Positions 18,901 through 45,691 of a DNA stretch of 55,487 nt are shown one piece after another. This stretch comes from a virus. The notes under the pieces are model-generated. The model saw nothing but the letters and a program-made list of their open reading frames with translations. It was not told where the DNA came from and ran no database searches. Numbering within the stretch: position 1 is the stretch's first letter; the number at the start of each line of letters is the position of its first letter. The stretch lies in IMG/VR virus record IMGVR_UViG_3300045988_108176, positions 1 through 55,487 of that record. One strand, written 5' to 3'. Both the position numbers and the translations under genes were made by a program.

Positions 18901-21900
18901 CATTGATGCCTCTATCTGTTATATCGAATAAAGTTAATGGCGCCGGAAAAACTATGTTATACATAGCCGTTTCATTTTTAATAATGGCTAAAGTTATGAA
19001 ATACGTAGGAAAATTGGATTCCGATACGATATTTAAAGGTTTAGCCACATTGAACGCCTTTAAGTGGATGGTTATACAGATGATGGCCATTAACGGGCTG
19101 TGTAAGTCAATGAATAACGCCGGAAAGAATATGCTATACATATCCGTAGCGTTTTTAGTCATGGCGAAAGTCGTAAAATACGCGGGTAGCATATCTGAAA
19201 AAGATACAAACAGAGGAATAAATACATTAAAGAAATTTACTGGTCTTGTAATAGCATTAATGGTAGTTCAAGGCGTTATTGATTTCCTTAATTCGAACGG
19301 TGGTAGTTCGAAACGAGCTTATAGTAATGTCGGTAAAATGATATTATACATAGCTATCGCGTTCGGATTAATGACGTTAGTTATAAAAGCTATATCTAAA
19401 ATAAGCGACAAAAACTTAAAACGAGGAATAACTGTTTTATGGATATTTGCAGGCTTAGTATCTGCATTAATTGCAGTTGGTCATTTTCTTGGTGACGTTA
19501 AAGGAAGTGCTTTATCTACAGGCGGCGCTATATTATTGGTCACAATATCAATGCTCGGTATGGCTATAGTCGCTGGTATTATAGGTTTTATTCCGATAAA
19601 TATGCTAAAAAAGGGCGTAACTGTCGTAGGTATTTTCGGATTAATAATAATGGGCCTAATGAAATGCGCGTCGTATGTAAAACCAGACGCTAAGAAAGCA
19701 TTAGGTTCTGTTTTAGCCTTAATGATAACTATGGCTGCCATAGTTGTTATATTTTCATTAATAGACACTAAGAAATTATATGAGTCTGTCGGAGCAGTGG
19801 CAATATTATCAGCATTGATAGCGGGATTAATGATAGCAACTGGATACGTTAAACCTAACGACGACGCATTAAAGGGCCTTAAAAAAGTAATGATTGTTTT
19901 AGTAGTAGTTGCTGCAATTATCGTCGTAATGGACCAATTTGGCGTTAATGGTGAAACTGCGTTGAAGAATGCTATCGCAATAGGCGTCATATTCGTAGCT
20001 CTTGCCGCGTCATTATTTATATTATCGAAAATAGAAAAAGTTAGCAAAGACGCTATAACTGCATTATATATAATAAGTCCAATGTTAATAATAATTGGAG
20101 CTGTTTTATTAGCATTAGATAAATTTAACGTCCAATCTAATATCACTAATGTAATTAGTTTGGCTGTCCTTATAAATGCACTATCGGCTGCGGTATTGAT
20201 ATTAAGTCAGTCGAAAGAGATAAAAAAGGGCGTACTAAAATCATTAGTAATAATGTCACTAGTAATGGGTATATTAGGTGCCATATTATTAGCGATGGAT
20301 AAACTTAATGTCAAAGCAAGTCTTAAAACAGCATTTGCTTTGGCTATTTTAATAAACGCATTGTCGTCGGCTGTCGTAATATTATCGTACGCTAATGTTA
20401 CACTAGACGAGAGCGTTATAAAAACAATGTTAGCTTTAATATTAATGGTTTGTGGAGCTATGTTATTAATTTCGGTGGCTTTGTTAATGTTAAAGAACGT
20501 AAATAATGCTATTCCAAGCGCTCTAGCTTTAACTACAATTATGCTGGCAATGGTACCGTTAATAATCGCGTTAGGTTTAGTTGCAGCAGTTTTATCGTTA
20601 GATGTTCTTGGCGCTGGATGGAAAGCAGCTATGATTATATTAGCCGGTGTTATAGTGTCCATGTTGGCTATAGTCGGTGTTTTAGCGTTAATGCAAGGCA
20701 TAGACAATGCTACTGCAAATGCAATAATATTAGTATTCTTACTCAACGCGATGTCAGATGTATTAATTAAAGTAGCGCCATTAGCTCCGTTAGCTTTAAT
20801 AGCTAGTGTAGCTATAGGAGCATTATCGGCTGTATTAGTTGTATTAGGAGGTTTAATAACCGTAATTGGTGCCCTAACATCAAAATACCCTCAAATAGAA
20901 GATTATATTAATAAAGGCGCTCCTATCATGATTAAACTTGCCAACACAGTAGGACAAATGATTGGCGCGTTTATAGCCGGTATAGCCGAAGGAATAATGC
21001 AAATTTTACCTGCATTTGGTCAGGCACTTAGTGACTTTGCTAACAATTTAAATAAGGGTTTCATAGAAGTAATGAAACTCGCCGCCGACGAGCAGGTTCT
21101 TACTGGTGCCGGAATTTTAGTAGCTTCTATATTAGCATTATGCGTAGCCCAATTAATTAACGGGATAACTAATTTACTACCGTTCGTTCCTAGTATGTTC
21201 GACCTTGGCGTTCAATTAAGCAAATTTGCTGTTGCATCTATACCGTTTATTATTGCTTGTAAACAAATGGGACCTGATGGAGCAATGGGAGCACAAGCAT
21301 TATGCGAAGCATTAATGATGATAACAAAGGCTGAACTACTCCAAAGTTTAACCGGTTTCATAGAGTTTTTTACTGGTTCAAGTGATTCGTTTGATACCAT
21401 GTTATCAAAATTAGTATCATTCGGTTATGCTGCGGTAGAGTTTTCCAACGCCGTATCTGGTAATATCGATGTCGAAGCTGTCACTGCTGCTGTATCTATA
21501 GGTGAAATGATTACTTCATTACAAGAAGCAGTACCGGCAGTCGCGGCATTTAATGATGCTGACTTCGATTCATTTAGTGCATCAGTAGCTGGTTTTGGAT
21601 TTGCCATGGTAGCCATGAACAACGCGTTAACAGATGAAGAAGGTAACAGTGTAATAAACTTAAACGCAATAGACACTGCAAAGAAAGCCGGATTATTAAT
21701 GACAGAATTGGCTGATAAAATTCCTAAACGTAAAGGTTGGGTTACTAAAATAATGGGTGAAGCTGACCTAGGTGTATTTGGAGCAAGTTGCGCCGCATAT
21801 GGTGCTGCTATGGTTTTGTTTAGTAATACTGTTACTGATTCTGAAGGTAAGAGTAGATTAAATACAGAATCGATTAAAGCTGCTGCAGATGCTGGCGGAA

Positions 21901-23471
21901 TAATGGCTGAGTTAAACGGAAAAGTTCCTACGAGTGACGGTTTCTGGCAGAAGGTCGCTGGTTCCAAAGATTTAGGTGATTTCGGAGCCAGTATAGAAGC
22001 TTATGGACAAGCTATGATTAGATTTAGTGATGCCGTTGTCGACAAAAACGGTACTGTTAAAATCAATCCAAGAGCAGTAGACGCAGCGTATTACGCAGGT
22101 AATATATTCGCTTCTTTAACTAATTCATTAGCTCCTCAACAGGGTGTTATATCATCCTTGTTCACGTCCGAAAAAGACTTGAGCGATTTCGGCGCCCAGC
22201 TGGAAAGTTTCGGTACGTCAGTAGTAAATTTCTCATCAACAGTTGACGGTAATTTAGGCGATGACCCTAAAGGCATGATAGATGATGTAAGTTATATTGT
22301 CACAAGTATTCTCGGTGTATTACCTTCAGAAGAAAATGGTAATAAAGCTATCTTGGATAAGAATCTAATCGGTAAGTTTGGTGATAATTTCAAGACTTTA
22401 GGTGAAAAAATTAAAGGTTTTAGCGATAAAGTAAAGAACATAGACGAAACGGCTGTAACGAGCGCAGCGCAAGCGATAAAAGATTTATCAGCGGCTGGTG
22501 CAAGTATGGAAAGCGTAACTACAACCGGCGCTAATTCGTTTGGCGCTAAGTTGACTGCGTTAGCTGATGCTATGTACAATTTTAATACTAAAATGGCGAA
22601 TTACGATTTCTCTGGTTTGAAAAATTTCGCTGAAGCATTAGTAGAATTTGCTCATATCTCTATCGACAACTATGTTTTAGCATATAAAGATGGATATAAG
22701 CAATTATATTCTGCAGGTTATTCCGCAGGTGAAATAACAAGAAGAGGTTTCAGCGATGCATTGTTAGACCCAATCGAAAAACCGATAGCAACTATAATGA
22801 CTACCGTTATGGATACAATAGCTAATACCTTAAACGACAATAATAAAAAAGAAAGTATAAGAATAGGCGCTGGTAATGTAGTGTCACTTATAATTTCCGA
22901 ATTTAATTATCGTTTGGGAATAGGACCTTCTTCTACCAATGATTTCTACAATATCGGTGTAAAAATAATAGCTTCCATCATTGACGGTATGTCTGATAAA
23001 GCTGCTAGTGCAAGAGATAGGGCTGGCGTTATACTGGACGATATATACTCTACAATCGATAAAAAGACACGTGGTCGTGCTGGGACTAAAGCAAATGGTA
23101 ATACTCTCAGTGGATTACAAAGTGCAACTGAAGACATAGTGAATGCTATGAGTTTATCGACCGAGTTTCAGCCTACAATTAGACCGATTCTTGATTTATC
23201 GGATATTACATCTGGTGGTAAACGGATTAACTCTATATTTGATGGATTTAGTATTAGTACTTCGTTCAGATTAGCGTCTACGTCCAATAGCATGTTTAAC
23301 GCTAATCGTTCGAACAATATATCTCCGCTTGATATTTTGAAGAATGTATCCAGTACACCTAAAACAGTAAACAATTACGAAATAAATGGAATTTCCTACG
23401 ACGACGGTTCAACTGTAGCGAACGCAATTTTACAGCTTATAAACGCAGTCAGAGTAGAAGAAAGGATGTAA
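15909..23471 (+). CDS. tape measure protein (~2,520 aa) with a very large hydrophobic repeat region
   Basis: N-terminal TMP core (GQGRLMGDQLLQLSGRGMNAAATLAEEFG...GQISFDMFAQAM). ATG 15909 overlaps the upstream stop (ATGA). Sits after the chaperones. Confidence 0.85.
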   Translation: MSGKGVDERILSMKFDNASFEKNAKVTINTLDKLQRTLDTTKLSKDISNLYSYVTKIGTEVKTFIAIKYAIKGIDAALKSVTEGGKRRAENLENAHFQLQGLLKDEEKVSEIMNDVSKSVDGTAYGLDAAAKVASQLAASNVKAGDQMFTALRGIAGVAAMTNSSYEDIGRIFTQVAGQGRLMGDQLLQLSGRGMNAAATLAEEFGLTEAVVRDMVSKGQISFDMFAQAMDSAFGEHAKKANETMTGALSNVKSALGRIGALFYSPLIEQNGALVQLFNALRVKTNELKDALAPTISKIVDIAIKAINWATSIINKIDFSSIASKILKPFTAVKQTFDDIGTRVQSTSKIITNASDVINEVINGKWDVGAKRWDKLTNAGYNWVAVQNGVNETLGSTYRHAEQLSNTIDDLTNNVSDSNQVINLSNNTLALTKRNYAATKTSVSGLSDAMSQLSIYANKAGYSVDDVVKDHSLLSMSSLLLDSLSNIVKIIKSLGKSIAKSWNNVFGSLDNVNPVFNLIAGFRKLTSELQITEEVSDKITRTFNGLFAVLDLIRMVVGGGVSLAMKAIRFIFETFGLKVLDVTAALGDAIVAVRNWIKNTLKSSGILNGIKRILTPIIKLIVDAAKSIYNWAKENNLLNKIASGLGTILQGVAYFIEKVVTKVVDWIKNSSLLRNILTKVGSVISELIDKTSKWIDGLKNTDSIPEYIISGLVSGLTSGIVKVKEVVGLLANAILSTLREILGIHSPARVPMEYGELTGEGYSIGLSHANEKGVQAATEFTGKVLTTMKDITVDGVRNLVSNMPKIMDVISKIPWGSIVFGGMAIALVKGVGKLNTTIDKVGAIIANNPLTILTKAVENYTAGMKNLLTELGKAKKIKAITQMMYSVAVSIGVLAASIYLLSKVDKGGMVRAMIMITFIAAILAALTSLMYLLDKKSSAWNKVGKDAKIINSTVLNMIGIAASFLLMATAFKTLANIKQENVAQAIVMMGALWLIALTLMPLSVISNKVNGAGKTMLYIAVSFLIMAKVMKYVGKLDSDTIFKGLATLNAFKWMVIQMMAINGLCKSMNNAGKNMLYISVAFLVMAKVVKYAGSISEKDTNRGINTLKKFTGLVIALMVVQGVIDFLNSNGGSSKRAYSNVGKMILYIAIAFGLMTLVIKAISKISDKNLKRGITVLWIFAGLVSALIAVGHFLGDVKGSALSTGGAILLVTISMLGMAIVAGIIGFIPINMLKKGVTVVGIFGLIIMGLMKCASYVKPDAKKALGSVLALMITMAAIVVIFSLIDTKKLYESVGAVAILSALIAGLMIATGYVKPNDDALKGLKKVMIVLVVVAAIIVVMDQFGVNGETALKNAIAIGVIFVALAASLFILSKIEKVSKDAITALYIISPMLIIIGAVLLALDKFNVQSNITNVISLAVLINALSAAVLILSQSKEIKKGVLKSLVIMSLVMGILGAILLAMDKLNVKASLKTAFALAILINALSSAVVILSYANVTLDESVIKTMLALILMVCGAMLLISVALLMLKNVNNAIPSALALTTIMLAMVPLIIALGLVAAVLSLDVLGAGWKAAMIILAGVIVSMLAIVGVLALMQGIDNATANAIILVFLLNAMSDVLIKVAPLAPLALIASVAIGALSAVLVVLGGLITVIGALTSKYPQIEDYINKGAPIMIKLANTVGQMIGAFIAGIAEGIMQILPAFGQALSDFANNLNKGFIEVMKLAADEQVLTGAGILVASILALCVAQLINGITNLLPFVPSMFDLGVQLSKFAVASIPFIIACKQMGPDGAMGAQALCEALMMITKAELLQSLTGFIEFFTGSSDSFDTMLSKLVSFGYAAVEFSNAVSGNIDVEAVTAAVSIGEMITSLQEAVPAVAAFNDADFDSFSASVAGFGFAMVAMNNALTDEEGNSVINLNAIDTAKKAGLLMTELADKIPKRKGWVTKIMGEADLGVFGASCAAYGAAMVLFSNTVTDSEGKSRLNTESIKAAADAGGIMAELNGKVPTSDGFWQKVAGSKDLGDFGASIEAYGQAMIRFSDAVVDKNGTVKINPRAVDAAYYAGNIFASLTNSLAPQQGVISSLFTSEKDLSDFGAQLESFGTSVVNFSSTVDGNLGDDPKGMIDDVSYIVTSILGVLPSEENGNKAILDKNLIGKFGDNFKTLGEKIKGFSDKVKNIDETAVTSAAQAIKDLSAAGASMESVTTTGANSFGAKLTALADAMYNFNTKMANYDFSGLKNFAEALVEFAHISIDNYVLAYKDGYKQLYSAGYSAGEITRRGFSDALLDPIEKPIATIMTTVMDTIANTLNDNNKKESIRIGAGNVVSLIISEFNYRLGIGPSSTNDFYNIGVKIIASIIDGMSDKAASARDRAGVILDDIYSTIDKKTRGRAGTKANGNTLSGLQSATEDIVNAMSLSTEFQPTIRPILDLSDITSGGKRINSIFDGFSISTSFRLASTSNSMFNANRSNNISPLDILKNVSSTPKTVNNYEINGISYDDGSTVANAILQLINAVRVEERM

Positions 23472-27774: not shown

Positions 27775-28041
27775 ATGGATAATACAATTTTAGTTGCTAT
27801 TCTATCCTTTATAGGCACTATAATTGGTACGTTCGGCGGTATACTTACTGCTAATAAACTAACTAATTATAGATTAGCTCAGATAGAAAAAAAGATAGAA
27901 CAGAATACATTATCGTACGAACATATTGCTGCTGAATTATGCAACTTGCGCACATCATATGAAGTGTGTTCGGTTAAAATATGTAACTTAGAAAAAAGAT
28001 TAAACAACATAGAAAAACTCATGGAGGGGAAAGACATATGA
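27775..28041 (+). CDS. N-terminal TM + coiled-coil protein, coupled to the holin (lysis accessory?)
   Basis: ILVAILSFIGTIIGTFGGIL is a TM segment. The stop overlaps the holin ATG (ATGA). Confidence 0.4.
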   Translation: MDNTILVAILSFIGTIIGTFGGILTANKLTNYRLAQIEKKIEQNTLSYEHIAAELCNLRTSYEVCSVKICNLEKRLNNIEKLMEGKDI

Positions 28042-28295
28042 AATTAAATTTTAAAGTTAGGTTAAAGAACAAGTTGTTTTGGACAACCATGATACCTGCC
28101 GTGATTTTACTTGTAACGCAGGTATGTAAATTATTCGGTCTCAATTTGGACCTTAGTGGTGTATCATCTTCGTTACTAGACATAGTTTCTACAGTATTTA
28201 TAATTTTAACAATTTTGGGTATTGTTAATGACCCAACTACTAACGGCATGTCTGATTCAGACCTTGCAATGACATACAAAGAGCCTAAACGATAA
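28038..28295 (+). CDS. holin (phi LC3 / Phage_holin_1 family)
   Basis: NFKVRLKNKLFWTTMIPAVILLV...GIVNDPTTNGMSDSDLAMTYKEPK closely matches the family pattern. Confidence 0.85.
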   Translation: MKLNFKVRLKNKLFWTTMIPAVILLVTQVCKLFGLNLDLSGVSSSLLDIVSTVFIILTILGIVNDPTTNGMSDSDLAMTYKEPKR

Positions 28296-28313
28296 AAACA
28301 TATACTATTATGG
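28290..28313 (+). promoter_or_regulatory. promoter-like core c0 (no hairpin; overlaps the holin stop)
   Basis: cgatAAAAACAtatacTATTATGG. Confidence 0.5.
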
Positions 28314-28348
28314 AGTAAAATCCATACTTTATATTTTAGGAGGATGCT

Positions 28349-28534
28349 ATGAACATTGTTGAAAACATAATCGAAAAGGGTTTGTTTGTTATTGGAGGCG
28401 CTCTGTTGGGGTTGATTATATCTAAAAAGGTATACGACGTCAATAGTGATGCCTATATTAACGACATGGCAAACATACAGTGTAAGCTAGACGAAATTGA
28501 TAGCAAAGTTCAGGTCATTTATGACAGAAAGTAA
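28349..28534 (+). CDS. small membrane protein (cassette 0)
   Basis: 61 aa, AGGAGG SD, TM segment GLFVIGGALLGLII. Confidence 0.6.
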   Translation: MNIVENIIEKGLFVIGGALLGLIISKKVYDVNSDAYINDMANIQCKLDEIDSKVQVIYDRK

Positions 28535-28553
28535 AAAGTAAAACCCAATAAGG

Positions 28554-28613
28554 GCACTCACTTGAAAAACAGTGGGTGTTCTTTTTTGACGATAGAAACA
28601 TGGTGTATTATGG
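28554..28613 (+). promoter_or_regulatory. cassette junction J1: terminator hairpin + T-run + promoter-like core
   Basis: 8-bp stem (2 G-U), loop TTGAAAAACA, TCTTTTTT, then cgatAGAAACA-N5-TATTATGG. Confidence 0.6.
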
Positions 28614-28652
28614 AGTAAAATCCGAAATATTTTTGACATTTAGGAGGAAAAC

Positions 28653-28784
28653 ATGAGTACAATGATATTGTTATTGGCTAAGATAGGGGGTATGATATTG
28701 TTTTATCTACCTTATGTATTGTTCGCAATATTCGAGATATTTGTATGTTATGCGTTTATCAATATCAAATGGTTTGAAAAGTAA
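28653..28784 (+). CDS. 43-aa hydrophobic micropeptide (cassette 1; paralogue of 29835)
   Basis: AGGAGG is 7 nt before the ATG. MSTMILLLAKIGGMILFYLPYVLFAIF... Not in the track (<60 aa). Confidence 0.55.
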   Translation: MSTMILLLAKIGGMILFYLPYVLFAIFEIFVCYAFINIKWFEK

Positions 28785-28803
28785 AGGATTAACCCAGACA
28801 AAG

Positions 28804-28863
28804 GCACTCACTTGAAAAACAGTGGGTGTTCTTTTTTGACGATAGAAACATCGTATATTATGG
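28804..28863 (+). promoter_or_regulatory. cassette junction J2
   Basis: Same hairpin and core. Confidence 0.6.
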
Positions 28864-28903
28864 GATAAATACCAAAAACTATATTTTTTGGAGGATTTTT
28901 GTT

Positions 28904-29227
28904 ATGAAAACGAACTCAAAGGAAATCGACGGAATGGAGAAAGTAAGGAAAGAATTCGAGGAGATGTCTGATGACAATCTAAAAAAATGGACAGAACTCG
29001 TCTTTCAAAAATATGAAGAATACGGTGGCGAGGTTATTGACGCTCACATAAACCCTGATACAGGCGAATTCTGTATCGAGTATAGAGCTGATGGAATTAG
29101 ACTACAAGATGTATTCCATATTCATAACTTTGATAAAGATGAGGGTCGTATTGATTGGATGTGTTGTACTCGAACGTTAGACCCTCTTTCTACGTTTATC
29201 GATGATGAGAACGAAGACAAAGAATAA
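28904..29227 (+). CDS. hypothetical acidic protein (cassette 2)
   Basis: 107 aa. Starts at the ATG after GGAGGA. The track start 28826 lies in the repeat. Confidence 0.6.
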   Translation: MKTNSKEIDGMEKVRKEFEEMSDDNLKKWTELVFQKYEEYGGEVIDAHINPDTGEFCIEYRADGIRLQDVFHIHNFDKDEGRIDWMCCTRTLDPLSTFIDDENEDKE

Positions 29228-29252
29228 GAATAAGGTTTAAAACCCAACTAGG

Positions 29253-29313
29253 GCACTCACTTGAAAAACAGTGGGTGTTCTTTTTTTAACGAGAAAAACA
29301 TATACTATTATGG
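29253..29313 (+). promoter_or_regulatory. cassette junction J3
   Basis: Same hairpin and core. Confidence 0.6.
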
Positions 29314-29353
29314 GATAAATACCCAAAACTATATTTTTTGGAGGATTTTTGTT

Positions 29354-29710
29354 ATGAAATGCTATACTAAGAAGAAGTCGGAAAACGTGCGTGCTGCATT
29401 TAAGGCACAGGCAGAAGCGGCTGAGTACAATTGGCGTTGCTTCTTTGACAAAACTTTTGAAACTTTAGGAGAGTACAGAATGTTGGACGTTTGGTCTAAT
29501 TATGAAACTTGCACGACGTGGTGTATGTTCGAATTTAACAATGAACGATATGATGTGGTCTTCGAGCTAGCAAAAGTGGGCAAAGATTGGAGCGTAAAGG
29601 AATTGAACTTTACCGTATTCGGTACTGACCTGCACATGGCAAGCGTTATTCGTAAATACCTTCTTGATGTATTGAAAAACGTACAAGAAAGAATGGAAAA
29701 CGAAAAATAA
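29354..29710 (+). CDS. hypothetical protein (cassette 3)
   Basis: 118 aa, same 5' UTR as cassette 2. Confidence 0.6.
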   Translation: MKCYTKKKSENVRAAFKAQAEAAEYNWRCFFDKTFETLGEYRMLDVWSNYETCTTWCMFEFNNERYDVVFELAKVGKDWSVKELNFTVFGTDLHMASVIRKYLLDVLKNVQERMENEK

Positions 29711-29733
29711 AAGGTAATATTTATCTACCAAAG

Positions 29734-29793
29734 GCACTCACTTGAAAAACAGTGGGTGTTCTTTTTTGACGATGGAAACAAGCGCTATTATGG
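29734..29793 (+). promoter_or_regulatory. cassette junction J4
   Basis: Same hairpin and core. The 5' UTR is the same as J1. Confidence 0.6.
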
Positions 29794-29834
29794 AGTAAAA
29801 TCCGAAATATTTTTGACATTTAGGAGGCAAAAAC

Positions 29835-29981
29835 ATGGTAACGATAGCAATATTGTCAATATTGTTGTTAGCAGTGATAGGAGGCATTATATTAAGTTAT
29901 ATGCCGTATATCTTAATAGCAATAATGGCAGCATCTGTTATTTTATTAACAGTGGCAGTCTGCAAATGGATTGTAAAATAA
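29835..29981 (+). CDS. 48-aa hydrophobic micropeptide (cassette 4; paralogue of 28653)
   Basis: MVTIAILSILLLAVIGGIILSYMPYILIAI...; AGGAGG SD. Confidence 0.55.
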   Translation: MVTIAILSILLLAVIGGIILSYMPYILIAIMAASVILLTVAVCKWIVK

Positions 29982-30003
29982 AGGATAAAAACCTAAAACT
30001 AGG

Positions 30004-30063
30004 GCACTCACTTGAAATACAGTGGGTGTTCCTTTTTGACGATAAAAACATAGTATATTATGG
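30004..30063 (+). promoter_or_regulatory. cassette junction J5
   Basis: Same hairpin (loop TTGAAATACA) and core. Confidence 0.6.
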
Positions 30064-30103
30064 AGTAAAATCCTAATAAAATTTTTAAAAATGGAGGCAT
30101 ACT

Positions 30104-30166
30104 ATGATTGTCGGTATAATACTATTGGTACTTGGTGTATATCTGATAACAAAGAATGACGGTTGA
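30104..30166 (+). CDS. 20-aa hydrophobic micropeptide (cassette 5)
   Basis: MIVGIILLVLGVYLITKNDG; GGAGG is 7 nt upstream. Confidence 0.35.
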   Translation: MIVGIILLVLGVYLITKNDG

Positions 30167-30194
30167 GAAAAATAAGGTAGGAATTAACACTAAG

Positions 30195-30254
30195 GCACTC
30201 ACTTGAAATACAGTGGGTGTTCCTTTTTGACGAGAAAAACATAGTATATTATGG
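30195..30254 (+). promoter_or_regulatory. cassette junction J6
   Basis: Same hairpin and core. Confidence 0.6.
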
Positions 30255-30337
30255 AGTAAATATATGATATAATTTTATTATGAAAGGAGGAAACTTATGT
30301 AATAAAATAAAGTTTCATATTTTTTGTTATCCTTTGG

Positions 30338-30397
30338 GCACTCACTTGAAATACAGTGGGTGTTCTTACTTGACGATAAAAACATAGTATATTATGG
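30338..30397 (+). promoter_or_regulatory. cassette junction J7 (weak T-run)
   Basis: Same hairpin and core. Confidence 0.5.
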
Positions 30398-30443
30398 AGT
30401 AAAATCCTAATAAAAATTTTTATATTTTTGGAGGAAATTTTTT

Positions 30444-30584
30444 ATGGCAACATTAATCATTTTAGGACTTGTTTGTTCTTTCGCCGGAGGCGTGCTTAGC
30501 GCAATCGGCAACAAAAAACAACAAAGAAAAATGGTACGGGAAGAAGTTAAGAAAATATATATCCACGGATTAAAAAAGAAGTAA
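30444..30584 (+). CDS. 46-aa TM + basic-tail micropeptide (cassette 7)
   Basis: MATLIILGLVCSFAGGVLSAIGNKKQQRK...; GGAGGA SD. Confidence 0.5.
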   Translation: MATLIILGLVCSFAGGVLSAIGNKKQQRKMVREEVKKIYIHGLKKK

Positions 30585-30602
30585 AGGATTAACCGGATAA
30601 GG

Positions 30603-30663
30603 GCACTCACTTGAAAAACAGTGGGTGTTCTTGTTTTTACCAGAAAAACATGTTGTTTTATGG
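30603..30663 (+). promoter_or_regulatory. cassette junction J8 (core variant TTTTATGG)
   Basis: Same hairpin; ccagAAAAACAtgttgTTTTATGG. Confidence 0.55.
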
Positions 30664-30705
30664 GATAAACGCCAATAATTTATATTTTATCGGAGGAAAG
30701 TAACG

Positions 30706-30873
30706 ATGTTCACAGGAGCATGGAAAGTGCTTATAGATATTATATATAACATTACAGGAAGTATGTGTTTAGGAGTATACATATTTTCTTTGTTGACAGT
30801 GTTAGAAATATTATCAATAAGTGTAATTATAGGAAACGTCGCATTACGAATCATTAGAAAAAATAAGAAATAA
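30706..30873 (+). CDS. 55-aa membrane micropeptide (cassette 8)
   Basis: CGGAGGA SD; hydrophobic core CLGVYIFSLLTVLEILSISVIIG. Confidence 0.5.
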   Translation: MFTGAWKVLIDIIYNITGSMCLGVYIFSLLTVLEILSISVIIGNVALRIIRKNKK

Positions 30874-30892
30874 GGTTTAAAACCCAAACTGG

Positions 30893-30952
30893 GCACTCAC
30901 TTGAAAAACAGTGGGTGTTCCATTTTAACATCAAAAACAAGCCCTATTATGG
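30893..30952 (+). promoter_or_regulatory. cassette junction J9
   Basis: Same hairpin, weak T-run, core catcAAAAACAagcccTATTATGG. Confidence 0.5.
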
Positions 30953-30991
30953 AATATTTTCCTAATTTATATTTTTTGGAGGACTTAAGAC

Positions 30992-31150
30992 ATGATTGAC
31001 AAAACGGGATATGACGTTGTGGAATTGAACGACTACAGAATGACTTGTTATCACAAATACGATGATATTAACAAGCTGCATCATTATGTAGTCGTCTACA
31101 TTAAGGACAACGGTGAAGCCGTAGAAACAATATGGACAGATAAAGAATAA
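30992..31150 (+). CDS. 52-aa soluble small protein (cassette 9)
   Basis: GGAGGA SD; MIDKTGYDVVELNDYRMTCYHKYDD... Confidence 0.5.
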   Translation: MIDKTGYDVVELNDYRMTCYHKYDDINKLHHYVVVYIKDNGEAVETIWTDKE

Positions 31151-31185
31151 CAAAAGATAAGACAGGACAGGAATTAACTATGAGA

Positions 31186-31245
31186 GCACTTACTTGAAAT
31201 ACAGTGGGTGTTCTTACTTGACGATAAAAACAAGTGCTATTATGG
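31186..31245 (+). promoter_or_regulatory. cassette junction J10 (stem variant GCACTTAC)
   Basis: Degenerate hairpin and core. Confidence 0.45.
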
Positions 31246-31285
31246 GAACTATTTCCTAATTTATATTTTTTTGGAGGTTTGTGTT

Positions 31286-31480
31286 ATGAACACTAAAGAC
31301 TTGACGATGAAACCGAAATATGAGGATTGTATTACAACAATGATATTGATTGTACAGAATCTGTGGAGCATGAGAACGGATGCGCAGATAACTGACAACC
31401 AATATATGGACATCCTCGCTATGATGGATGACATCGTGTATGGGTTGAGCGAGATTCTCGCAAACCAGAAATACGTGTAA
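31286..31480 (+). CDS. 64-aa small protein (cassette 10)
   Basis: GGAGG SD. The track start 31208 lies in the repeat. Confidence 0.55.
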   Translation: MNTKDLTMKPKYEDCITTMILIVQNLWSMRTDAQITDNQYMDILAMMDDIVYGLSEILANQKYV

Positions 31481-31502
31481 AATAGTTTAAACCCAAACTG
31501 GG

Positions 31503-31562
31503 GCACTCACTTGAAATACAGTGAGTGTTCTTGTTTTACCAGAAAAACATGTTGTTTTATGG
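31503..31562 (+). promoter_or_regulatory. cassette junction J11 (perfect stem GTGAGTG)
   Basis: Hairpin and core variant TTTTATGG. Confidence 0.55.
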
Positions 31563-31595
31563 GATAAATACCCAATTATATTTTTGGAGGATTGT

Positions 31596-31904
31596 ATGAA
31601 AAGAACCAAAACTAACTTTCAAAGCTTGAAAGCCGAGGAACGACGGATATTGGCTCAACTGAACAAACTTGACATCAATGATGATGACGAGTATGACAAA
31701 CAATTAACTCGATTGATTAAAATACGAGAGATGATTATCAAATCTACCGACGCGTACTCGAAGCGTCGCGAAATAGTATCATCACTTGTGCCAATAGGAG
31801 TAAGTTGTTGTGTCTTCTTGCTTTCATTATTTGTCGAATACTCAGGTGATTCGATGTTTACATCCGAAGCGTCAAAGGCTTTGTTTAAGAAGTTGACGAA
31901 GTAA
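31596..31904 (+). CDS. 102-aa protein with C-terminal TM segment (cassette 11)
   Basis: GGAGGA SD; LVPIGVSCCVFLLSLFV. Confidence 0.55.
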   Translation: MKRTKTNFQSLKAEERRILAQLNKLDINDDDEYDKQLTRLIKIREMIIKSTDAYSKRREIVSSLVPIGVSCCVFLLSLFVEYSGDSMFTSEASKALFKKLTK

Positions 31905-31940
31905 CAGTCAAAGAAAATAAGATATCTAAGGAGGTAAAAA

Positions 31941-31977
31941 TAGAACAGATTAAACAGTCTGTTCTATTGTTTCAAAA
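31941..31977 (+). terminator. 9-bp perfect hairpin (terminator and/or RBS-bridging structure)
   Basis: tagaacaga/ttaaacag/tctgttcta followed by ttgtttcaaaa. Lies between an orphan AAGGAGGT (31928-31935) and GTG 31978. Confidence 0.5.
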
Positions 31978-32700
31978 GTGAATAATAGGTTAAAATCTAA
32001 CATTTTAATTGGAGCTGGAATAGGGGGACTTATATTTTCCGGAATCCAGCTTTTCAACATCGGTAAAAAACACGCTAATTTGTATTCTGATAAGTTGATT
32101 TCCAGAAAACAGAAAATACAGAGCACGTGGAAAAGCTATATTCCGGTAGCGATTAATGTTGTTACGTCATCAGGTGCGATAATCGCAGGTGCTATTGGAT
32201 TGAATAATGCAATCGTAGCTACGTCTACACTGGTCGGAGTGACACAGAACGCTCTCGCTAGCTATAAATCAGCGGTTGCCGATACGGTTTCAAATGAAGT
32301 TAAAGACGCAATCCAAGAGAAAGCCAATAAAAAAGCCATGGACTCTGATGATTCAGAACCTTCTCCGAATGACACACCTAAGATGGAGGAAATGATGTGC
32401 TATGATTCATTTATCGGAAGATATTTTTATTCGAATATATTAAGTCTCGAACGAGCTATTAATAATGTGAACCGAGACTTAATGAATTACGATACATGTT
32501 CCTTAAATGAGTTCTACGCGTATCTAGATAAAGATGGTTCGGACGTCGGAAATATAGTCGGCTGGACGTCAAAAGAGTATGAACGTTCCGGCAATGGTCT
32601 TGATATTGTGTATCATTACGAAAAGTCAAAACACGGGTATCCGGTGCTGGTATTTTCGTATACTAGCGACCCGGTGTATAATTTTAACAAGTCTTATTAA
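31978..32700 (+). CDS. membrane protein, GW-motif family member 1 (GTG start uncertain)
   Basis: N-terminal TM segments; C-terminal SLNEFYAYLD...GNIVGWTSKEY. Confidence 0.5.
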   Translation: MNNRLKSNILIGAGIGGLIFSGIQLFNIGKKHANLYSDKLISRKQKIQSTWKSYIPVAINVVTSSGAIIAGAIGLNNAIVATSTLVGVTQNALASYKSAVADTVSNEVKDAIQEKANKKAMDSDDSEPSPNDTPKMEEMMCYDSFIGRYFYSNILSLERAINNVNRDLMNYDTCSLNEFYAYLDKDGSDVGNIVGWTSKEYERSGNGLDIVYHYEKSKHGYPVLVFSYTSDPVYNFNKSY

Positions 32701-32717: not shown

Positions 32718-32891
32718 ATGAGTAGGAATGTGGAACTGATGAGGGAAATACGATTGTGGACAACTAACATAATCATCCCAGTCGGTATTGTTGCATTTAT
32801 CGTTATTAAACGAAATCCTGCAAAGTGGACGTCGTTTAAAAATTCTGTCAAGAACAAATTTAAAAAAGCTAAAGACGAGGTATCAAAATGA
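32718..32891 (+). CDS. 57-aa membrane protein, translationally coupled to 32888
   Basis: GGAGG SD; TM segment NIIIPVGIVAFIVI; ATGA overlap. Not in the track. Confidence 0.5.
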   Translation: MSRNVELMREIRLWTTNIIIPVGIVAFIVIKRNPAKWTSFKNSVKNKFKKAKDEVSK

Positions 32892-33628
32892 GTTTCAGTG
32901 AATTTTTTAAAAAAAACGGGCATTATATTCTTAGTGCTTTGAGCGTTGCAGGAACGGTAGCGTCTATCATACTTACAGCAAAGGTAACACCCAAAGCCGT
33001 ACAACGAAAAGAAGAGTTGAAAAAACAGAAGGGTGACGAATTTACAAAAAAGGACGCTATCATTAGCGATATTAAATCGTACGCTCCTGTAATAGCTACC
33101 GGAATAGGTACTGTGGCTAGCATCGTCGGAAATACGATTCTGTCAAACAGACAACAGGCATCTTTGATTGGATTGTATACGTTTGCGAATGCGTCATACG
33201 GAAAATACAAAGACAAAATCAATTCTGCATTGGAAAGGGCAGGACTTAAGGATAAAATTGAGGAAGACATCGTTAGACAAGATGCCCGTGATATGGGATT
33301 AACTATATCTGATGATAAGCCAGATACTATACTCGTATATGACATGTTTACTTTGTCATACATCGAAACTACGATAGACGAACTCTTGTCAGCAGAGAAT
33401 TACGTTAATGAACGAGTTCGTAAATACGGGCGGTGCTCTGTTGAACAATTCTATAACTGTTTAGACATGGATATTATCTTTAGGAATTATTATGACGACG
33501 AATATCCAATAAGCATGCGTAACTTGTGGTGGATAGATAACGAAGTCAATTTTGAGCATCGTAGAGCTTGCATAGATGAGAATTTTTATGTATTGATGTT
33601 GTCGTTTGAAGAACCGCAATTGCTGTAA
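32888..33628 (+). CDS. membrane protein, GW-motif family member 2 (divergent)
   Basis: Shared K.Y.P TM region and C-terminal CSVEQFYNCLD. Confidence 0.5.
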   Translation: MSFSEFFKKNGHYILSALSVAGTVASIILTAKVTPKAVQRKEELKKQKGDEFTKKDAIISDIKSYAPVIATGIGTVASIVGNTILSNRQQASLIGLYTFANASYGKYKDKINSALERAGLKDKIEEDIVRQDARDMGLTISDDKPDTILVYDMFTLSYIETTIDELLSAENYVNERVRKYGRCSVEQFYNCLDMDIIFRNYYDDEYPISMRNLWWIDNEVNFEHRRACIDENFYVLMLSFEEPQLL

Positions 33629-34324: not shown

Positions 34325-34442
34325 CGTTTTAGGAACCGTCTGTGATTTGATAGGCGGATTTCTTATCGCAAGATATTTGGAAGACGACATGAAAAAAGAA
34401 ATATCAGCAGAAATAAAAAAGTACGAGACGAAAACAAACTGA
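34311..34442 (+). CDS. possible 43-aa small ORF
   Basis: ATG overlaps the end of 33641. The SD is distant (11 nt). Weak. Confidence 0.25.
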   Translation: MNVINVLGTVCDLIGGFLIARYLEDDMKKEISAEIKKYETKTN

Positions 34443-34466
34443 CGAGAAAAACAAACGCTATTATGG
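34443..34466 (+). promoter_or_regulatory. promoter-like core c12
   Basis: cgagAAAAACAaacgcTATTATGG. Confidence 0.5.
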
Positions 34467-34500: not shown

Positions 34501-34650
34501 ATGATAGTAGGGTTAATATTTGGAATAGTTTGTGTTGTATCAATTTCAAAGGCGGTCCGCAAGTATAAGAAAGACGAAGCGGAAGCATTGAGGAACGAAT
34601 GCGCACATCATATCCATAGAAGTGTACATCATAATATACATGATAGGTAA
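34501..34650 (+). CDS. 49-aa TM peptide with His-rich tail
   Basis: GGAGGA SD; MIVGLIFGIVCVVSIS...HHIHRSVHHNIHDR. Confidence 0.5.
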   Translation: MIVGLIFGIVCVVSISKAVRKYKKDEAEALRNECAHHIHRSVHHNIHDR

Positions 34651-34671
34651 AATAGGTAAGTAGAAAGCAAG

Positions 34672-34712
34672 AGGGTCATCAATAAAACGATGGCCTTTTT
34701 GTTTTATTTTTT
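34672..34712 (+). terminator. rho-independent terminator
   Basis: Stem agggtcatc/gatggcctt (two G-U pairs), 8-nt loop, long T-run. Confidence 0.6.
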
Positions 34713-34714
34713 GA

Positions 34715-34738
34715 CGAGAAAAACAAACTATATTATGG
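34715..34738 (+). promoter_or_regulatory. promoter-like core c13
   Basis: cgagAAAAACAaactaTATTATGG. Confidence 0.5.
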
Positions 34739-34779
34739 GATACTTCCCAATTTTTTAAATTAAGAGGAGATTTATTATT

Positions 34780-35735: not shown

Positions 35736-35981
35736 ATGAGTACTGTGAATCATCCTAGGCACTATTCGGGAACGAAAGTAGAATGTATCGACGCCATTGA
35801 ATCAGCCATTTCTAATAAGAATGGTATTGAAGGTTTTTATGTAGGTCAGATTATTAAGTATATTTGGCGGTTTGACCAAAAGAATGAAATCGAAGATTTG
35901 GAGAAAGCAAGATGGTATTTGAACCGTCTTATAAAGATTAAGAATAAAACATATGTGAAGGACACAAAGGAGGAAAAGTAA
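35736..35981 (+). CDS. DUF3310-family protein
   Basis: HPRHY...ECIDAIE...GQIIKYIWRFDQKN.IEDLEKARWYL signature. Confidence 0.8.
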   Translation: MSTVNHPRHYSGTKVECIDAIESAISNKNGIEGFYVGQIIKYIWRFDQKNEIEDLEKARWYLNRLIKIKNKTYVKDTKEEK

Positions 35982-36850
35982 TGATATCATTTAATACAGT
36001 TAAAAATTTCGTGAAGGCATGCCTGCCTACAGCACTTACTACTATGGGTGTAATCGGTATCGGCGTGTTTGGATATTCTGTAAAGAAGGGCGCAGAAAAA
36101 CATATCGCAGCAAAGAAGAAGCACGAAGAAACCGCGGCTGTCATCGAAGATGCAAAAAACGACGAGACATTCGAATATACTGAAGAAGATATTGCGAACG
36201 ATACTAAGGTAAACGACCTGACTTACGCTCGCGAATGCGTTAAGGCATATATTCCTTCTGTACTCGTTGGTGGCCTTACAACTGCTGCGTTTGTAGGCGC
36301 ACACTGTATCTTGAACAAACGCTACCTCACGCTTGGTAGTGCATTTATCGGAGTTTCGAGTGCTTTTAATAAGTACAGAGAAAACGTGAAAGAAAAGTAC
36401 GGTGAGGATGCTGATAGGCAGTTCAGATTCAATGTAAAAGATGTTAAACCGCCTGAAGACGGAACTACGTCTAAGAAGAAAAAGCAGACTGAAAAAACCA
36501 TCGAACCTGAGCACAGTGCCTATACAAGATGCTTCTGTAAAGGGAGCCCGGGTTGGACTGATGACGCAGAAGATAGATTGTTCTACCTGTTGAAGATGCA
36601 ACGGTTCGCGAATGAAAAATTCAGCGTAAATAAGACTATGACCCTTAACGAGGTGTATGAAATGCTCGGATTCCCGAGGACACCGCAGGGACAACTCGTA
36701 GGCTGGAGCAAGAAGATAGACAAAAACGCAAAGATTGATTTTGGTATCTATGATATTTCAGATGAATCAAAACGTTTGTTTATCAACGGATATGAACCGG
36801 GTATTTGGCTGGACTTTAATGTCCAAGGAGACGTGTTGCAGTATATCTAA
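35981..36850 (+). CDS. membrane protein, GW-motif family member 3
   Basis: TM segments; C-terminal MTLNEVYEMLGFPRTPQGQLVGWSKK. Confidence 0.5.
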   Translation: MISFNTVKNFVKACLPTALTTMGVIGIGVFGYSVKKGAEKHIAAKKKHEETAAVIEDAKNDETFEYTEEDIANDTKVNDLTYARECVKAYIPSVLVGGLTTAAFVGAHCILNKRYLTLGSAFIGVSSAFNKYRENVKEKYGEDADRQFRFNVKDVKPPEDGTTSKKKKQTEKTIEPEHSAYTRCFCKGSPGWTDDAEDRLFYLLKMQRFANEKFSVNKTMTLNEVYEMLGFPRTPQGQLVGWSKKIDKNAKIDFGIYDISDESKRLFINGYEPGIWLDFNVQGDVLQYI

Positions 36851-45357: not shown

Positions 45358-45440
45358 AATATTTATATTTTATTGTAGGGCTTATTGCTGCAGTTGTAAC
45401 TTTTATCATTCTTTTCGCAATTGATACGGCGGTGTCTTAA
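45354..45440 (+). CDS. 28-aa TM micropeptide
   Basis: ATGA overlap with the helicase stop; MKYLYFIVGLIAAVVTFIILFAI. Confidence 0.35.
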   Translation: MKYLYFIVGLIAAVVTFIILFAIDTAVS

Positions 45441-45499
45441 GTATGAATTTAGCAATTGTCCTGTAACTAGAATAGATTTAATATGGAGGAAGAAATAAA

Positions 45500-45676: not shown

Positions 45677-45691
45677 AATGGAGGAAGAGAT

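Follow-up and report, generated by a model that had tools for sequence, protein, structure and literature searches.

In the host-takeover module of phage SPO1, very small early genes each have their own strong promoter and SD site, with terminators interspersed, and the early promoters are canonical sigma-A promoters. The class II/III promoter-gene units of phage T7 use short, conserved, polymerase-specific promoters starting at G, and the T7 polymerase is a right-hand enzyme unrelated to the one considered here. To our knowledge, neither the SPO1 module nor the T7 units have been described as a shuffling array. Phage N4 has a virion RNA polymerase (vRNAP) with dedicated early promoters that are DNA hairpins, and Drobysheva and colleagues are said to have described in 2021 a two-barrel virion enzyme of the QDE-1/YonO class, gp66 of the crAss-like phage phi14:2. 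YonO, from the Bacillus prophage SPbeta, drives one late operon (Forrest et al. 2017, PMC5467207). Promoter-early stem-loop (PeSL) cassettes are known from T4-type phages (Arbiol et al. 2010, PMC2839356; Comeau et al. 2014, PMC4122927). In cluster AU Arthrobacter phages, a 32-bp intergenic "boundary" repeat has been reported, and the post-tail region was the only one in which gene translocations and deletions were seen (Giantsbane preprint, bioRxiv 10.1101/2020.01.10.891226).

Hairpin-core units downstream of the holin gene

We analyzed 55,487 nucleotides of DNA from a gut phage (IMG/VR record IMGVR_UViG_3300045988_108176, positions 1 to 55,487), hereafter the window. Its + strand carries 12 promoter-like cores between 28289 and 31904, and a 30-nt hairpin, GGCACTCAC-TTGAAAWACA-GTGGGTGTTC, is present there in 11 copies. 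The array of recurring units that an earlier note had placed directly after the holin gene is therefore real, with the first core overlapping the holin stop codon and lacking a hairpin. All 11 hairpins lie on the + strand with ≤2 mismatches (28552-31530; 0 expected by chance over 100 shuffles), the array cores extend from 28289 to 31562, and units are spaced at 143-481 nt rather than at the 190-450 nt first given. Folding, T-runs, and GGAGG sites with start codons uphold the proposed layout of terminator hairpin, promoter-like core, SD, and tiny ORF: within the units the core follows the terminator hairpin and lies 25-45 nt before the SD, and every core is followed by a GGAGG site, a start codon, and an ORF of 1-118 codons. 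Between 27.5 and 37.5 kb, 15 terminator-like sites were found, versus 4.1 expected. The features are as follows, with the cargo ORFs in array order.

28038-28295, +, holin gene (phrog_962/297 holin, E 2e-24); stop codon overlaps first core
28289-28313, +, unit 0, core alone, ACGATAAAAACATATACTATTATGG, no upstream hairpin
28349-28534, +, cargo A, 61 aa, N-terminal TM helix, no PHROG/Pfam match
28552-28613, +, unit 1: hairpin 28552-28581, T6, core 28589-28613
28653-28784, +, cargo B1, 43-aa TM peptide, paralogue of B2
28802-28863, +, unit 2: hairpin 28802-28831, T-run, core 28839-28863
28904-29227, +, cargo E, 107 aa, acidic, soluble, ORFan
29251-29313, +, unit 3: hairpin 29251-29280, T7, core 29289-29313
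29354-29710, +, cargo F, 118 aa, soluble, ORFan
29732-29793, +, unit 4: hairpin 29732-29761, T6, core 29769-29793
29835-29981, +, cargo B2, 48 aa, very hydrophobic, paralogue of B1
30002-30063, +, unit 5: hairpin 30002-30031, core 30039-30063
30104-30166, +, cargo G, 20-aa hydrophobic peptide
30193-30254, +, unit 6: hairpin 30193-30222, core 30230-30254
30297-30302, +, cargo H, "empty" cassette, 1 codon (SD and ATG-TAA start-stop); extended -10 TATGATATAAT upstream, 30262-30275
30336-30397, +, unit 7: hairpin 30336-30365, interrupted T-run TTACTT, core 30373-30397
30444-30584, +, cargo I, 46 aa, N-terminal TM helix, basic tail
30601-30663, +, unit 8: hairpin 30601-30630, core variant ACCAGAAAAACATGTTGTTTTATGG 30639-30663
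30706-30873, +, cargo J, 55-aa TM peptide
30891-30952, +, unit 9: hairpin 30891-30920, core 30928-30952
30992-31150, +, cargo K, 52 aa, soluble; in the window only, missing in 7/7 relatives
31184-31245, +, unit 10: hairpin 31184-31213 (variant CACTTAC with two G.U pairs), core 31221-31245
31286-31480, +, cargo C, 64 aa, soluble
31501-31562, +, unit 11: hairpin 31501-31530 (GTGAGTG, U.G to U-A), core variant 31538-31562
31596-31904, +, cargo D, 102 aa, hydrophobic C-terminal TM helix, last cassette
31936-31971, +, different inverted repeat at array end, possible terminator, 14-nt arms, 93% complementary

The hairpin anatomy is strand-specific at the RNA level: folding energies were -14.6 to -19.4 kcal/mol for + strand RNA and -9.3 on the complement, because three stem pairs are G.U. 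Stems are 11-14 bp, G.U pairs included, and a T-run lies 3' of most copies; it is interrupted in 4 of 11, so termination may be leaky. Conservation of the scaffold, claimed earlier for both stem and loop, was borne out: the loop UGAAAnAC was invariant save one free position, and stem substitutions mainly turned G.U into A-U, while one A-U pair became G-C in a compensatory change. A survey of the searchable literature turned up no data on transcripts, their start sites, or their termination for this phage or any relative.

Seven cargo ORFs encode membrane peptides: the six micropeptides already noted (43, 48, 20, 46, 55, and 61 aa, all lengths correct) and the 102-aa product. Searches against PHROG and Pfam assigned none of the ORFs to a known family. 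The cargo had been called unrelated between units, which does not extend to the 43- and 48-aa peptides, a pair of paralogues with 50% identity (E 4e-10). We infer the promoter and terminator activity of the units and the function of their cargo, for which the earlier note had proposed superinfection exclusion, anti-defence, or membrane activity.

Cassette turnover among relatives

We compared the window with seven IMG/VR relatives whose flanking regions are about 90% identical. All seven carry the array, cassette order differs in 8/8 genomes, and the cargo falls into 20 families. Repeats make up 26% of the array yet contain 60% of alignment ends. A colinear block without cargo turnover, which the earlier note had named as counterevidence, was thus not found; the eight orders, the 20 families, and the breakpoints within repeats support its idea of PeSL-like shuffling. 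As direct repeats, the ~85-nt hairpin-promoter scaffolds would recombine with one another by homology, both inside one genome and between genomes that co-circulate. Such recombination would delete, duplicate, swap, and import cassettes, and accessory genes would thus have a hot spot here.

These repeats might instead be recombination or mobile "boundary" sequences without a transcriptional role, their ORFs being read through from one upstream promoter, as the repeat-enriched breakpoints would allow and as the cluster AU preprint takes its own repeat, but this is very improbable given that conserved and free positions follow the same pattern across phyla, that placement relative to hairpin and SD is strict, that one core copy precedes a tRNA gene, and that the hairpin is RNA-specific with G.U pairs.

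The core and its candidate reader

The core, ACGAnAAAAACA-N5-TATTATGG, spans 25 bp and begins ~7 nt 3' of the hairpin and U-run. It had been described as unsuited to sigma-70 spacing, and rightly: 14 nt separate TTGACG from TATTAT, and TTGACG varies among copies. The core has neither a -35 at 16-18 bp nor a TG extension. The A at hexamer position 2 (A-11) is essential for sigma-A, and this position is T in FP_oengus, MT835495, the Clostridia MAGs (see below), and three window copies. Spacing, the absent -35 and TG, and this T indicate that the core is not a sigma-70/sigma-A promoter. Across the + strand intergenic gaps of the genome, no strong sigma-A promoter was detected except inside cassette H. 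In 94 distinct units from 8 genomes, the A-C-g-A box and A-run were near-invariant (the A-run was left unfixed in the search pattern), and the -13 position and N5 spacer were free. This pattern, like that of the hairpin loop and stem, suggests selection rather than recent copying. Two exact copies and one variant of the core lie elsewhere in the window, none of them upstream of its structural genes; they are listed here together with the polymerase gene:

34442-34466, +, exact core upstream of a 49-aa TM ORF (34501-34650)
34664-34738, +, unrelated terminator hairpin 34664-34705 (-22 kcal/mol), T-run, and exact core 34714-34738, upstream of a 97-aa ORF
50867-50891, +, promoter variant ACGAGAAAAACAAGGCCTTTTATGA, before tRNA-Leu, exonuclease gene, and polymerase gene
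51876-54788, +, single-subunit two-barrel RNA polymerase, 970 aa (phrog_4291, E=0; DFDGD motif), candidate reader of the core

When cores are aligned by position, the form C-R-W6-ACA-N5-TWTWRT-R is found again, in a single orientation and ahead of small ORFs of the early region, in Faecalibacterium phage FP_oengus, Lactococcus phage 1706, Arthrobacter phage Arcadia, Streptomyces phage Scarif (59% GC), the gut contig MT835495, and two Clostridia MAGs. In these genomes it sits 3' of a lineage-specific terminator and shows a strong preference for the coding strand (+/- strand counts of 17/2, 6/1, 9/0, 13/1, and 10/0, versus 0.6-3.3 expected), and the box-to-hexamer distance is 5 nt in every lineage. 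Unrelated phages and SPbeta had 0-2 core matches each, none with the upstream box. Every core-bearing genome encodes a homologue of the window's 970-aa polymerase, named by Koert et al. as the signature gene of this phage group (bioRxiv 10.1101/842583). At the level of sequence, the core is conserved across phyla alongside the polymerase gene. Their sharing by such distant phages suggests that the core is the polymerase's promoter, and it would be specific to a large siphovirus group comprising the 1706/FP_oengus group and the actinophage supercluster. The core co-occurs with the whole conserved backbone rather than with the polymerase alone, and its reader could be another conserved DNA-binding protein.

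The AlphaFold model of the polymerase (pLDDT 76.7) matches QDE-1 (E 1e-8) and RDR2, showing a predicted QDE-1/YonO-like fold. Its C terminus contains a Sigma70_r4 HTH (PF04545, 35 bits, above the Pfam cut-off) that is kept across a family of at least 8000 proteins. In the window and in 1706 alike, the gene's neighbors on the other side of the genome junction are lysis and late genes. The 1706 homologue, orf75, is a "structural protein" in the original GenBank record, and the enzyme may be delivered with the virion. The virion association comes from a single database label; that of ReqiPoco6 was copied from 1706 by similarity.

Taken together, we favor, at a probability of about 0.6, autonomous, recombining early cassettes transcribed by a polymerase that the phage itself encodes and may carry in its virion. 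Twelve autonomous mini-transcription units would stand at the start of the non-structural (early) arm. In each, the RNA hairpin and U-run would stop the upstream transcript; the promoter would then restart transcription through a short leader and GGAGG ribosome site into a single small ORF, which in most cases is an ORFan or encodes a membrane peptide. The promoter would most likely be read by the QDE-1/YonO-like polymerase, whose HTH domains, including the sigma region-4-like C terminus, could bind the upstream box. Since the enzyme may come with the virion, cassette expression could begin immediately after infection. We infer both the identity of the polymerase that reads the core and the early timing. 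Several observations count against this reading. The one characterized relative, YonO, drives late rather than early genes, and in the window no core copy lies upstream of the structural genes. The core also precedes the polymerase operon itself, so a polymerase-dependent promoter there would need pre-made enzyme or some host recognition. In addition, the Arthrobacter, Streptomyces, and Lactococcus phages have hexamers (TATAAT, TATAGT) that look like a sigma-70 -10.

In a possible but doubtful alternative, host RNA polymerase would read the core through sigma-A on the -10-like hexamer (TATTAT, TATAAT, TATAGT), the box ACGAnAAAAACA would be bound by a conserved activator or sigma-appropriation factor of the phage that takes the place of the -35, much as MotA/AsiA replace -35 function at T4 middle promoters, and the phage polymerase would serve late genes. 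In Arcadia, Scarif, 1706, and most copies in the window, 5-6 of the 6 hexamer bases fit the -10 consensus. YonO transcribes late genes, and initiation by the host enzyme would more simply account for a core before the polymerase operon. However, the A-11 equivalent is T in the genomes and window copies named above, neither TG extension nor -35 is present, and an activator would be needed before the first genes are on; no gene for a sigma factor or activator turned up when ten non-structural and junction ORFs were scanned against PHROG. The purines conserved right behind the hexamer (GG, GAGA) point to a transcription start there, not 7 nt downstream.

Mycobacteriophage L5 has 13-bp stoperators, and the box might likewise be mainly an operator for a phage repressor or regulator that silences or times the region, with the hexamer an ordinary weak promoter. 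Many asymmetric copies in one orientation within short intergenic spaces would fit, as would the temperate, integrase-encoding FP_oengus. We consider this improbable: the fixed 5-nt box-hexamer distance in every lineage fits a single composite recognition site, and the box is equally conserved in virulent 1706 and in the window, in which the scans performed detected neither an integrase nor a repressor. It is, moreover, compatible with a promoter role.

Comparison with known systems

Like the SPO1 and T7 systems, the window would have a cluster of very small early genes with their own promoter and SD and terminators between them. [quoted passage not shown] In a tblastn search with the window polymerase, neither SPbeta nor any Bacillus phage was among the matches listed, and the yonN-yonK gap contained no matching core. 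With N4 and phi14:2, the window would share a phage-encoded polymerase (labeled "structural protein" in 1706) and dedicated non-sigma-70 promoters on early genes. In contrast to N4, its hairpin lies upstream, acts as RNA, and resembles a terminator, and in contrast to both, its enzyme is small (970 aa) and has HTH domains, one of them sigma-4-like.

The cluster AU repeat belongs to the same phage supergroup with the same polymerase, flanks each small gene after the tail genes, and is probably the Arcadia motif TCGCGTAAATTACA-N5-TATAAT. The preprint treats it as a recombination-promoting repeat within one cluster and proposes no promoter or terminator reading, polymerase link, or cross-phylum conservation.

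In PeSL cassettes, as in the window, a variable region holds small, non-essential ORFans separated by copies of a composite element, a terminator stem-loop plus a promoter, and recombination between these copies explains insertions, deletions, and replacements among close relatives. The PeSL signature proposed in the earlier note therefore stands for the shuffling (eight orders, breakpoints in repeats) and for the terminator/promoter layout, but not for the promoter, which is strong, early, and sigma-70-like in PeSL, whereas the window core does not have the geometry of sigma-70 and is accompanied by a phage polymerase. The window phage is also a siphovirus of Gram-positive hosts rather than a T4-like myovirus. 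Because its core is conserved together with the phage polymerase, the element would work like PeSL without a sigma-70-like promoter.

The array and its cassettes

The window is a complete circular assembly, with bases 1-54 repeated at 55434-55487, and every annotated gene lies on its + strand:

2318-3187, + strand: endolysin (phrog_291, E 4e-43)
6608-8350, + strand: large terminase
9839, + strand: portal
11097, + strand: protease/capsid fusion
15888-23471, + strand: 2527-aa ORF, taken as the tape measure
28038-28295, + strand: holin
51876-54788, + strand: polymerase-like gene, 970 aa
Also in the window, + strand: 1301-aa primase-polymerase, MazG-domain protein, helicase and ribonucleotide reductase; tRNA-Leu and an exonuclease gene

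The array of repeats that the earlier note had placed directly after the holin is present (28289-31904). The hairpin GGCACTCAC-TTGAAAWACA-GTGGGTGTTC occurs in 11 copies with at most 2 mismatches, all on the + strand and only within 28553-31530, where none would be expected by chance. The promoter-like core, ACGAnAAAAACA-N5-YWTTATGG, occurs 12 times, so that the array comprises 11 hairpin-plus-core units and one lone core; a stem-loop beside a promoter in intergenic repeats is also the composite motif of T4-type PeSL cassettes. Units are spaced 143 to 481 nt apart, a wider range than the 190 to 450 nt first estimated. Downstream of each core, at a distance of 25 to 45 nt, lie a ribosome site of GGAGG type and a start codon, opening ORFs of 61, 43, 107, 118, 48, 20, 1, 46, 55, 52, 64, and 102 codons. 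Seven of the 11 real ORFs encode a hydrophobic helix, which bears out the claim of at least six transmembrane micropeptides; the claim that the cargo is unrelated stands except for the 43- and 48-aa peptides, which are paralogues. No cargo ORF had a convincing PHROG or Pfam family match, and searches of the array DNA against INPHARED phages (megablast and blastn) returned no matches.

The hairpin has a stem of 11 to 14 bp (GGGCACUCACU / AGUGGGUGUUC) and an 8-nt loop. Its predicted free energy ranges from -14.6 to -19.4 kcal/mol (z-scores, -2.6 to -5.1), compared with only -9.3 for the complementary strand, because three stem pairs are G.U. Across 80 copies in eight related genomes, nearly all stem changes convert G.U to A-U, and one is a compensatory A-U to G-C change. 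At least five consecutive T residues lie within 1 nt of the stem in 7 of the 11 window hairpins; the T-runs of the other four are interrupted (TTACTT, TTGTTTT, CATTTT). Judged by this stable, G+C-containing RNA stem-loop with its U-run, the hairpin has the anatomy of an intrinsic terminator, one probably leaky in some cassettes. The loop, UGAAAnAC (28563-28570 and equivalents), is invariant in the 80 copies apart from one position that takes all four bases, and termination alone is not a sufficient explanation for this conservation. A similar A-rich motif, GAAAAACA, is found in the promoter box 25 nt downstream.

To follow the cassettes among relatives, IMG/VR was scanned with the exact hairpin pattern, yielding seven contigs, all from one metagenome. 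The 20 kb around the holin was taken from each, and inter-unit segments were clustered. The flanks of these relatives are ∼90% identical to the window; the arrays are 70 to 84% identical and rearranged.

Cassette order in the window and in its seven IMG/VR relatives (L015 to L021); letters denote cargo families.
Window: A B E F B G H I J K C D
L015: A E L E M B F N H I J C D
L016: O E M F B P H I J C D
L017: A E L Q R B N H I J C D
L018: A M F B G H I J C D
L019: E S M B N H I J C D
L020: O E L E M B F B G H I J C D
L021: O E T M F B N H I J C D

The eight genomes carry eight orders and twenty cargo families, with a colinear 3' half and a volatile 5' half; among them, cassette K is confined to the window. 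Colinear alignments begin and end inside units. For example, the window aligns with L016 from unit 3 (+36) to unit 9 (+98) and again from unit 10 (+11). Of the 144 alignment ends counted over all 28 genome pairs, 86 fall in units that make up 26% of the array; the ends are not independent of one another, and the p-value is therefore only indicative. Thus the order changes with breakpoints inside the repeat, which the earlier note had proposed to seek in relatives, were found. Small ORFans lie between conserved blocks, and the motif marks the borders of the indels and replacements that distinguish close relatives, which is the turnover described for T4-type PeSL cassettes (PMC2839356). These data support the PeSL-like interpretation of the array. 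Three more distant holin relatives (L022 to L024) proved to be unrelated phages in which the holin is followed by an endolysin, with no array, and were set aside.

Two cassettes differ in kind from the rest. Cassette H (30230-30335) is "empty": directly behind its phage-type core lie an extended -10 that matches the Gram-positive form perfectly, TATGATATAAT (30262-30275), then a strong SD and an ATG-TAA start-stop. The cassette is kept in 8 of 8 genomes. It could yield an RNA of ∼70 nt ending at the next hairpin. Cassette M (L020:11929-12112; also in L015, L016, L018, L019, and L021) is absent from the window and has a core variant, TATATTATGAAAAG, with neither SD nor ORF. Its predicted RNA of ∼179 nt has a folding energy of -45.3 kcal/mol (z, -3.9) and would end at a terminator of its own; cassette M may be noncoding RNA cargo. 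In Rfam searches, the window's sole hit at gathering score was its tRNA, and the L020 array, cassette M included, matched no family.

Other features of the layout were also recorded. The endolysin gene is 25 kb away from the holin, a split seen alike in Lactococcus phage 1706. Three DUF6353 paralogues (31978-32700, 32888-33628, and 35981-36850) are interleaved with promoter units and small transmembrane ORFs, an arrangement equaled by the triple DUF6353 genes of Faecalibacterium phage FP_oengus (gp15, gp18, and gp22). After the helicase gene, three further small hydrophobic ORFs stand in tandem (45355-45800), each with its own SD, downstream of a weak core-like site (45262, AAAAACAAAATCTATTATAG). 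The terminal 54-nt overlap contains a G9-TCTGAAAAACAA-C7 hairpin (31-59) with a loop similar to the array loop UGAAAAAC. Between the polymerase operon and the late genes lie ∼650 noncoding nt (55080-268), which may contain a late promoter or else the cos or pac site.

Conservation of the promoter-like core

Core conservation was assessed over 94 distinct units from eight genomes. Essentially no variation was seen in the ACGA box, the A-run, or ACA, and position -13 and the spacer of five bases vary freely. The search pattern had itself fixed the TATTATGG hexamer and part of the ACA/A-run; an independent nhmmer search gave the same unit set. As judged from these alignments, conservation of the core is a product of selection, beyond recent copying. 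Subtypes of the promoter keep to their cargo across genomes, as does ACCAGAAAAACATGTTGTTTTATGG, which precedes cassettes J and D. The core had been placed in the array, where its 12 copies do lie, but further copies occur at 34442 and 34714, with a variant at 50867. In this stretch (50867-51024), tRNA-Leu(TAA) comes directly behind the variant and a short T-run hairpin (AGGAAT..ATTCCT). Right after TATTAT, a short GGRR..YYCC inverted repeat (GGAGTAAAATCC, GGGATAAATACCC, GGAATATTTTCC, GGGATACTTCCC) was observed at 28312-28323, 28862-28874, 30951-30962, 34737-34748, and in other units, and in one relative the change GGTATAAATACC improves its pairing. This repeat could be a 5'-terminal transcript stem-loop or part of the initiation site.

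Promoters of sigma-A/sigma-70 type have -35 and -10 elements 16 to 18 bp apart or a TGn-extended -10, with an invariant A at -11. The core has a different geometry, as the earlier note had said of its spacing: TTGACG and TATTAT are 14 nt apart, TTGACG itself is not conserved, and the units have no -35 at 16 to 18 nt and no TG extension. Alternative sigma-70 registers (TAGAAA-17-TAAAAT, the T-run as -35, and the loop TTGAAA as -35) were rejected, as none is conserved among copies. At the position equivalent to A-11, several lineages and three of the window copies have T, which argues against a host sigma factor. In a whole-genome scan of + strand intergenic gaps, no strong sigma-A promoter was detected except the extended -10 in cassette H.

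The comparison was extended to phages of other hosts. In every lineage examined, a run of small ORFs follows the tail and lysis genes, and these ORFs are separated by a lineage-specific terminator hairpin and then a core that aligns position-for-position with that of the window.

Cores aligned across lineages.
Window: ACGAnAAAAACA-N5-TATTATGG
Gut contig MT835495: CGCGAAAAAAACA-N5-TATTATGA
Faecalibacterium phage FP_oengus: ACGCGAAAAAtaCA-N5-CTTTATGG
Arthrobacter phage Arcadia: TCGCGTAAATTACA-N5-TATAATGA
Streptomyces phage Scarif (59% GC): TCGCAnaTTTTACA-N5-TATAGTGAGACCCC
Lactococcus phage 1706: CACATGTTTTACA-N5-TATAGTAGAAAG
Two Clostridia MAGs: CGCGAGAAAAACA-N5-TTTTATGA

A generic core pattern gave + and - strand matches of 17/2, 6/1, 9/0, 13/1, and 10/0, with 0.6 to 3.3 expected per strand. 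Unrelated phages and SPbeta gave 0 to 2 matches, none when the upstream box was required, and the window's structural arm gave none on the + strand. Because terminators differ by lineage and the core is conserved, the core appears to be constrained by a conserved phage protein and not by structure alone. In each lineage, one core copy also stands in front of an endonuclease-exonuclease-polymerase operon. After this copy, actinophage Arcadia (L029:32123) and the human-gut contig (MT835495:619) share a near-identical leader, TATWATGAGGGAGAGGGA. At the same place, the window and FP_oengus have GGAATAGA in common, and the two pairs together suggest a conserved regulatory leader.

A two-barrel polymerase as candidate reader of the core

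The 970-aa product of 51876-54788 belongs to phrog_4291 (E = 0). Its motif ADFDGD (residues 541-546) is invariant in 31 homologues, and its C terminus (residues about 925-970) contains a Sigma70_r4 helix-turn-helix (HTH) above the Pfam cutoff. In Foldseek, an AlphaFold model built on these homologues (pLDDT 76.7) matched QDE-1 (7y7p; E 1e-8, probability 1.00) and RDR2 (E about 2e-4), and weak hits trailed off into multisubunit polymerases, cellular and viral, at their largest subunits; TM-scores are low (∼0.3), so the QDE-1 and RDR2 match is local to the core of the fold. A PDB search with the sequence gave no match. A DxDGD catalytic loop in a double-psi beta-barrel and fold similarity to solved members are the marks of the two-barrel single-chain class (QDE-1, YonO, and crAss gp66), and the protein shows both. 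The family numbers at least 8000 metagenome proteins, mostly with a C-terminal sigma-4-like domain, and by tblastn the gene was found in 250 phage records (Arthrobacter, Gordonia, Streptomyces, Lactococcus, Faecalibacterium, and others).

The phage 1706 homologue, orf75, is labeled "structural protein" in the original GenBank record (EU081845). This label reportedly reflects virion mass spectrometry by Garneau and colleagues in 2008. The same label in ReqiPoco6 was discarded as independent support, having been copied from 1706 by similarity. The window and 1706 both have this gene beside the endolysin across the genome junction, among late genes, which fits a packaged protein. Koert et al. described one ancient phage group with this polymerase as signature gene and HTH domains at both of its ends, and described no promoter (bioRxiv 10.1101/842583). 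Likewise, no described promoter for the polymerase group and no transcription data for phage 1706 were found in the searchable literature. For YonO, which serves late genes, the promoter was stated to be unknown (PMC5467207). No core was detected in the 1.7-kb yonN-yonK gap of SPbeta, where the YonO start site has been mapped, a comparison limited by the great distance of YonO and by a published coordinate that could not be matched to the phage record.

The most economical candidate reader of the core is this conserved polymerase with HTH domains at both ends. Since its own operon carries the same core, a premade enzyme would be needed. In the most far-reaching view, C-R-W6-ACA-N5-TWTWRT-R, with a start at a purine, may be the consensus for small single-chain two-barrel polymerases whose built-in HTH domains include one sigma-4-like domain, and these enzymes may be packaged in virions of Actinobacteria and Firmicutes siphoviruses. 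The array would then be an immediate-early take-over region, independent of host RNA polymerase and driven by the injected enzyme, and its modular promoter-terminator scaffold would double as a recombination substrate by which phages trade early genes. That the core is the first recognizable promoter consensus of the two-barrel family, together with packaging, an injected-polymerase array, and the recombining scaffold, we hold at slightly below even odds (∼0.45).

Three other explanations compete with the polymerase model. Host sigma-A might use the hexamer, assisted by a box-bound phage activator; the loss of A-11 and the dearth of other promoters in the genome speak against it, as they do against the other two. 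Alternatively, the box might be a multicopy operator. Its L5-type form, the stoperator, consists of asymmetric repressor sites in intergenic gaps of a temperate phage. The core copies do show an orientation bias; the PHROG and Pfam scans run on the window detected no repressor or integrase, and virulent phage 1706 carries the core as well. The conserved composite geometry and the placement of a core before a tRNA likewise count against all three, including the idea that the repeats are recombination sequences without a transcription role.

Relation to known systems

A related repeat in cluster AU phages has been noted only as a recombination sequence (bioRxiv 10.1101/2020.01.10.891226). New here are a promoter consensus shared across phyla and the connection between it and a possibly virion-borne two-barrel polymerase. 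For the question of which promoters YonO-like phage polymerases recognize, standing since 2017, the array and its relatives offer ∼100 natural variants of a candidate promoter with clear conserved and free positions. The 25-bp orthogonal candidate promoter and 970-aa polymerase could serve Gram-positive synthetic biology. Candidates for host take-over, exclusion, or anti-defence functions could naturally be sought among the membrane micropeptides and ORFans of this fast-turning cargo; the host is probably a member of the Clostridia.

If the polymerase is virion-borne, infection by an abundant group of siphoviruses from gut, dairy, and soil would begin independently of the host polymerase. To our knowledge, such a start has so far been seen mainly in N4, phiKZ-like jumbo phages, and crAss-like phages. 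An N4-type promoter is a DNA hairpin that sits at the start site and has a loop of 3 nt. The array hairpin differs from it in its position 5' of the core, in its 8-nt loop, and in its dependence on G.T(U) pairs that favor RNA. The array also departs from PeSL cassettes in lacking their strong sigma-70-like early promoter, so it falls outside PeSL in the strict sense. PeSL-type shuffling is tied neither to T4-like phages nor to sigma-70 promoters, and any dense promoter-terminator scaffold can become a platform for gene exchange.
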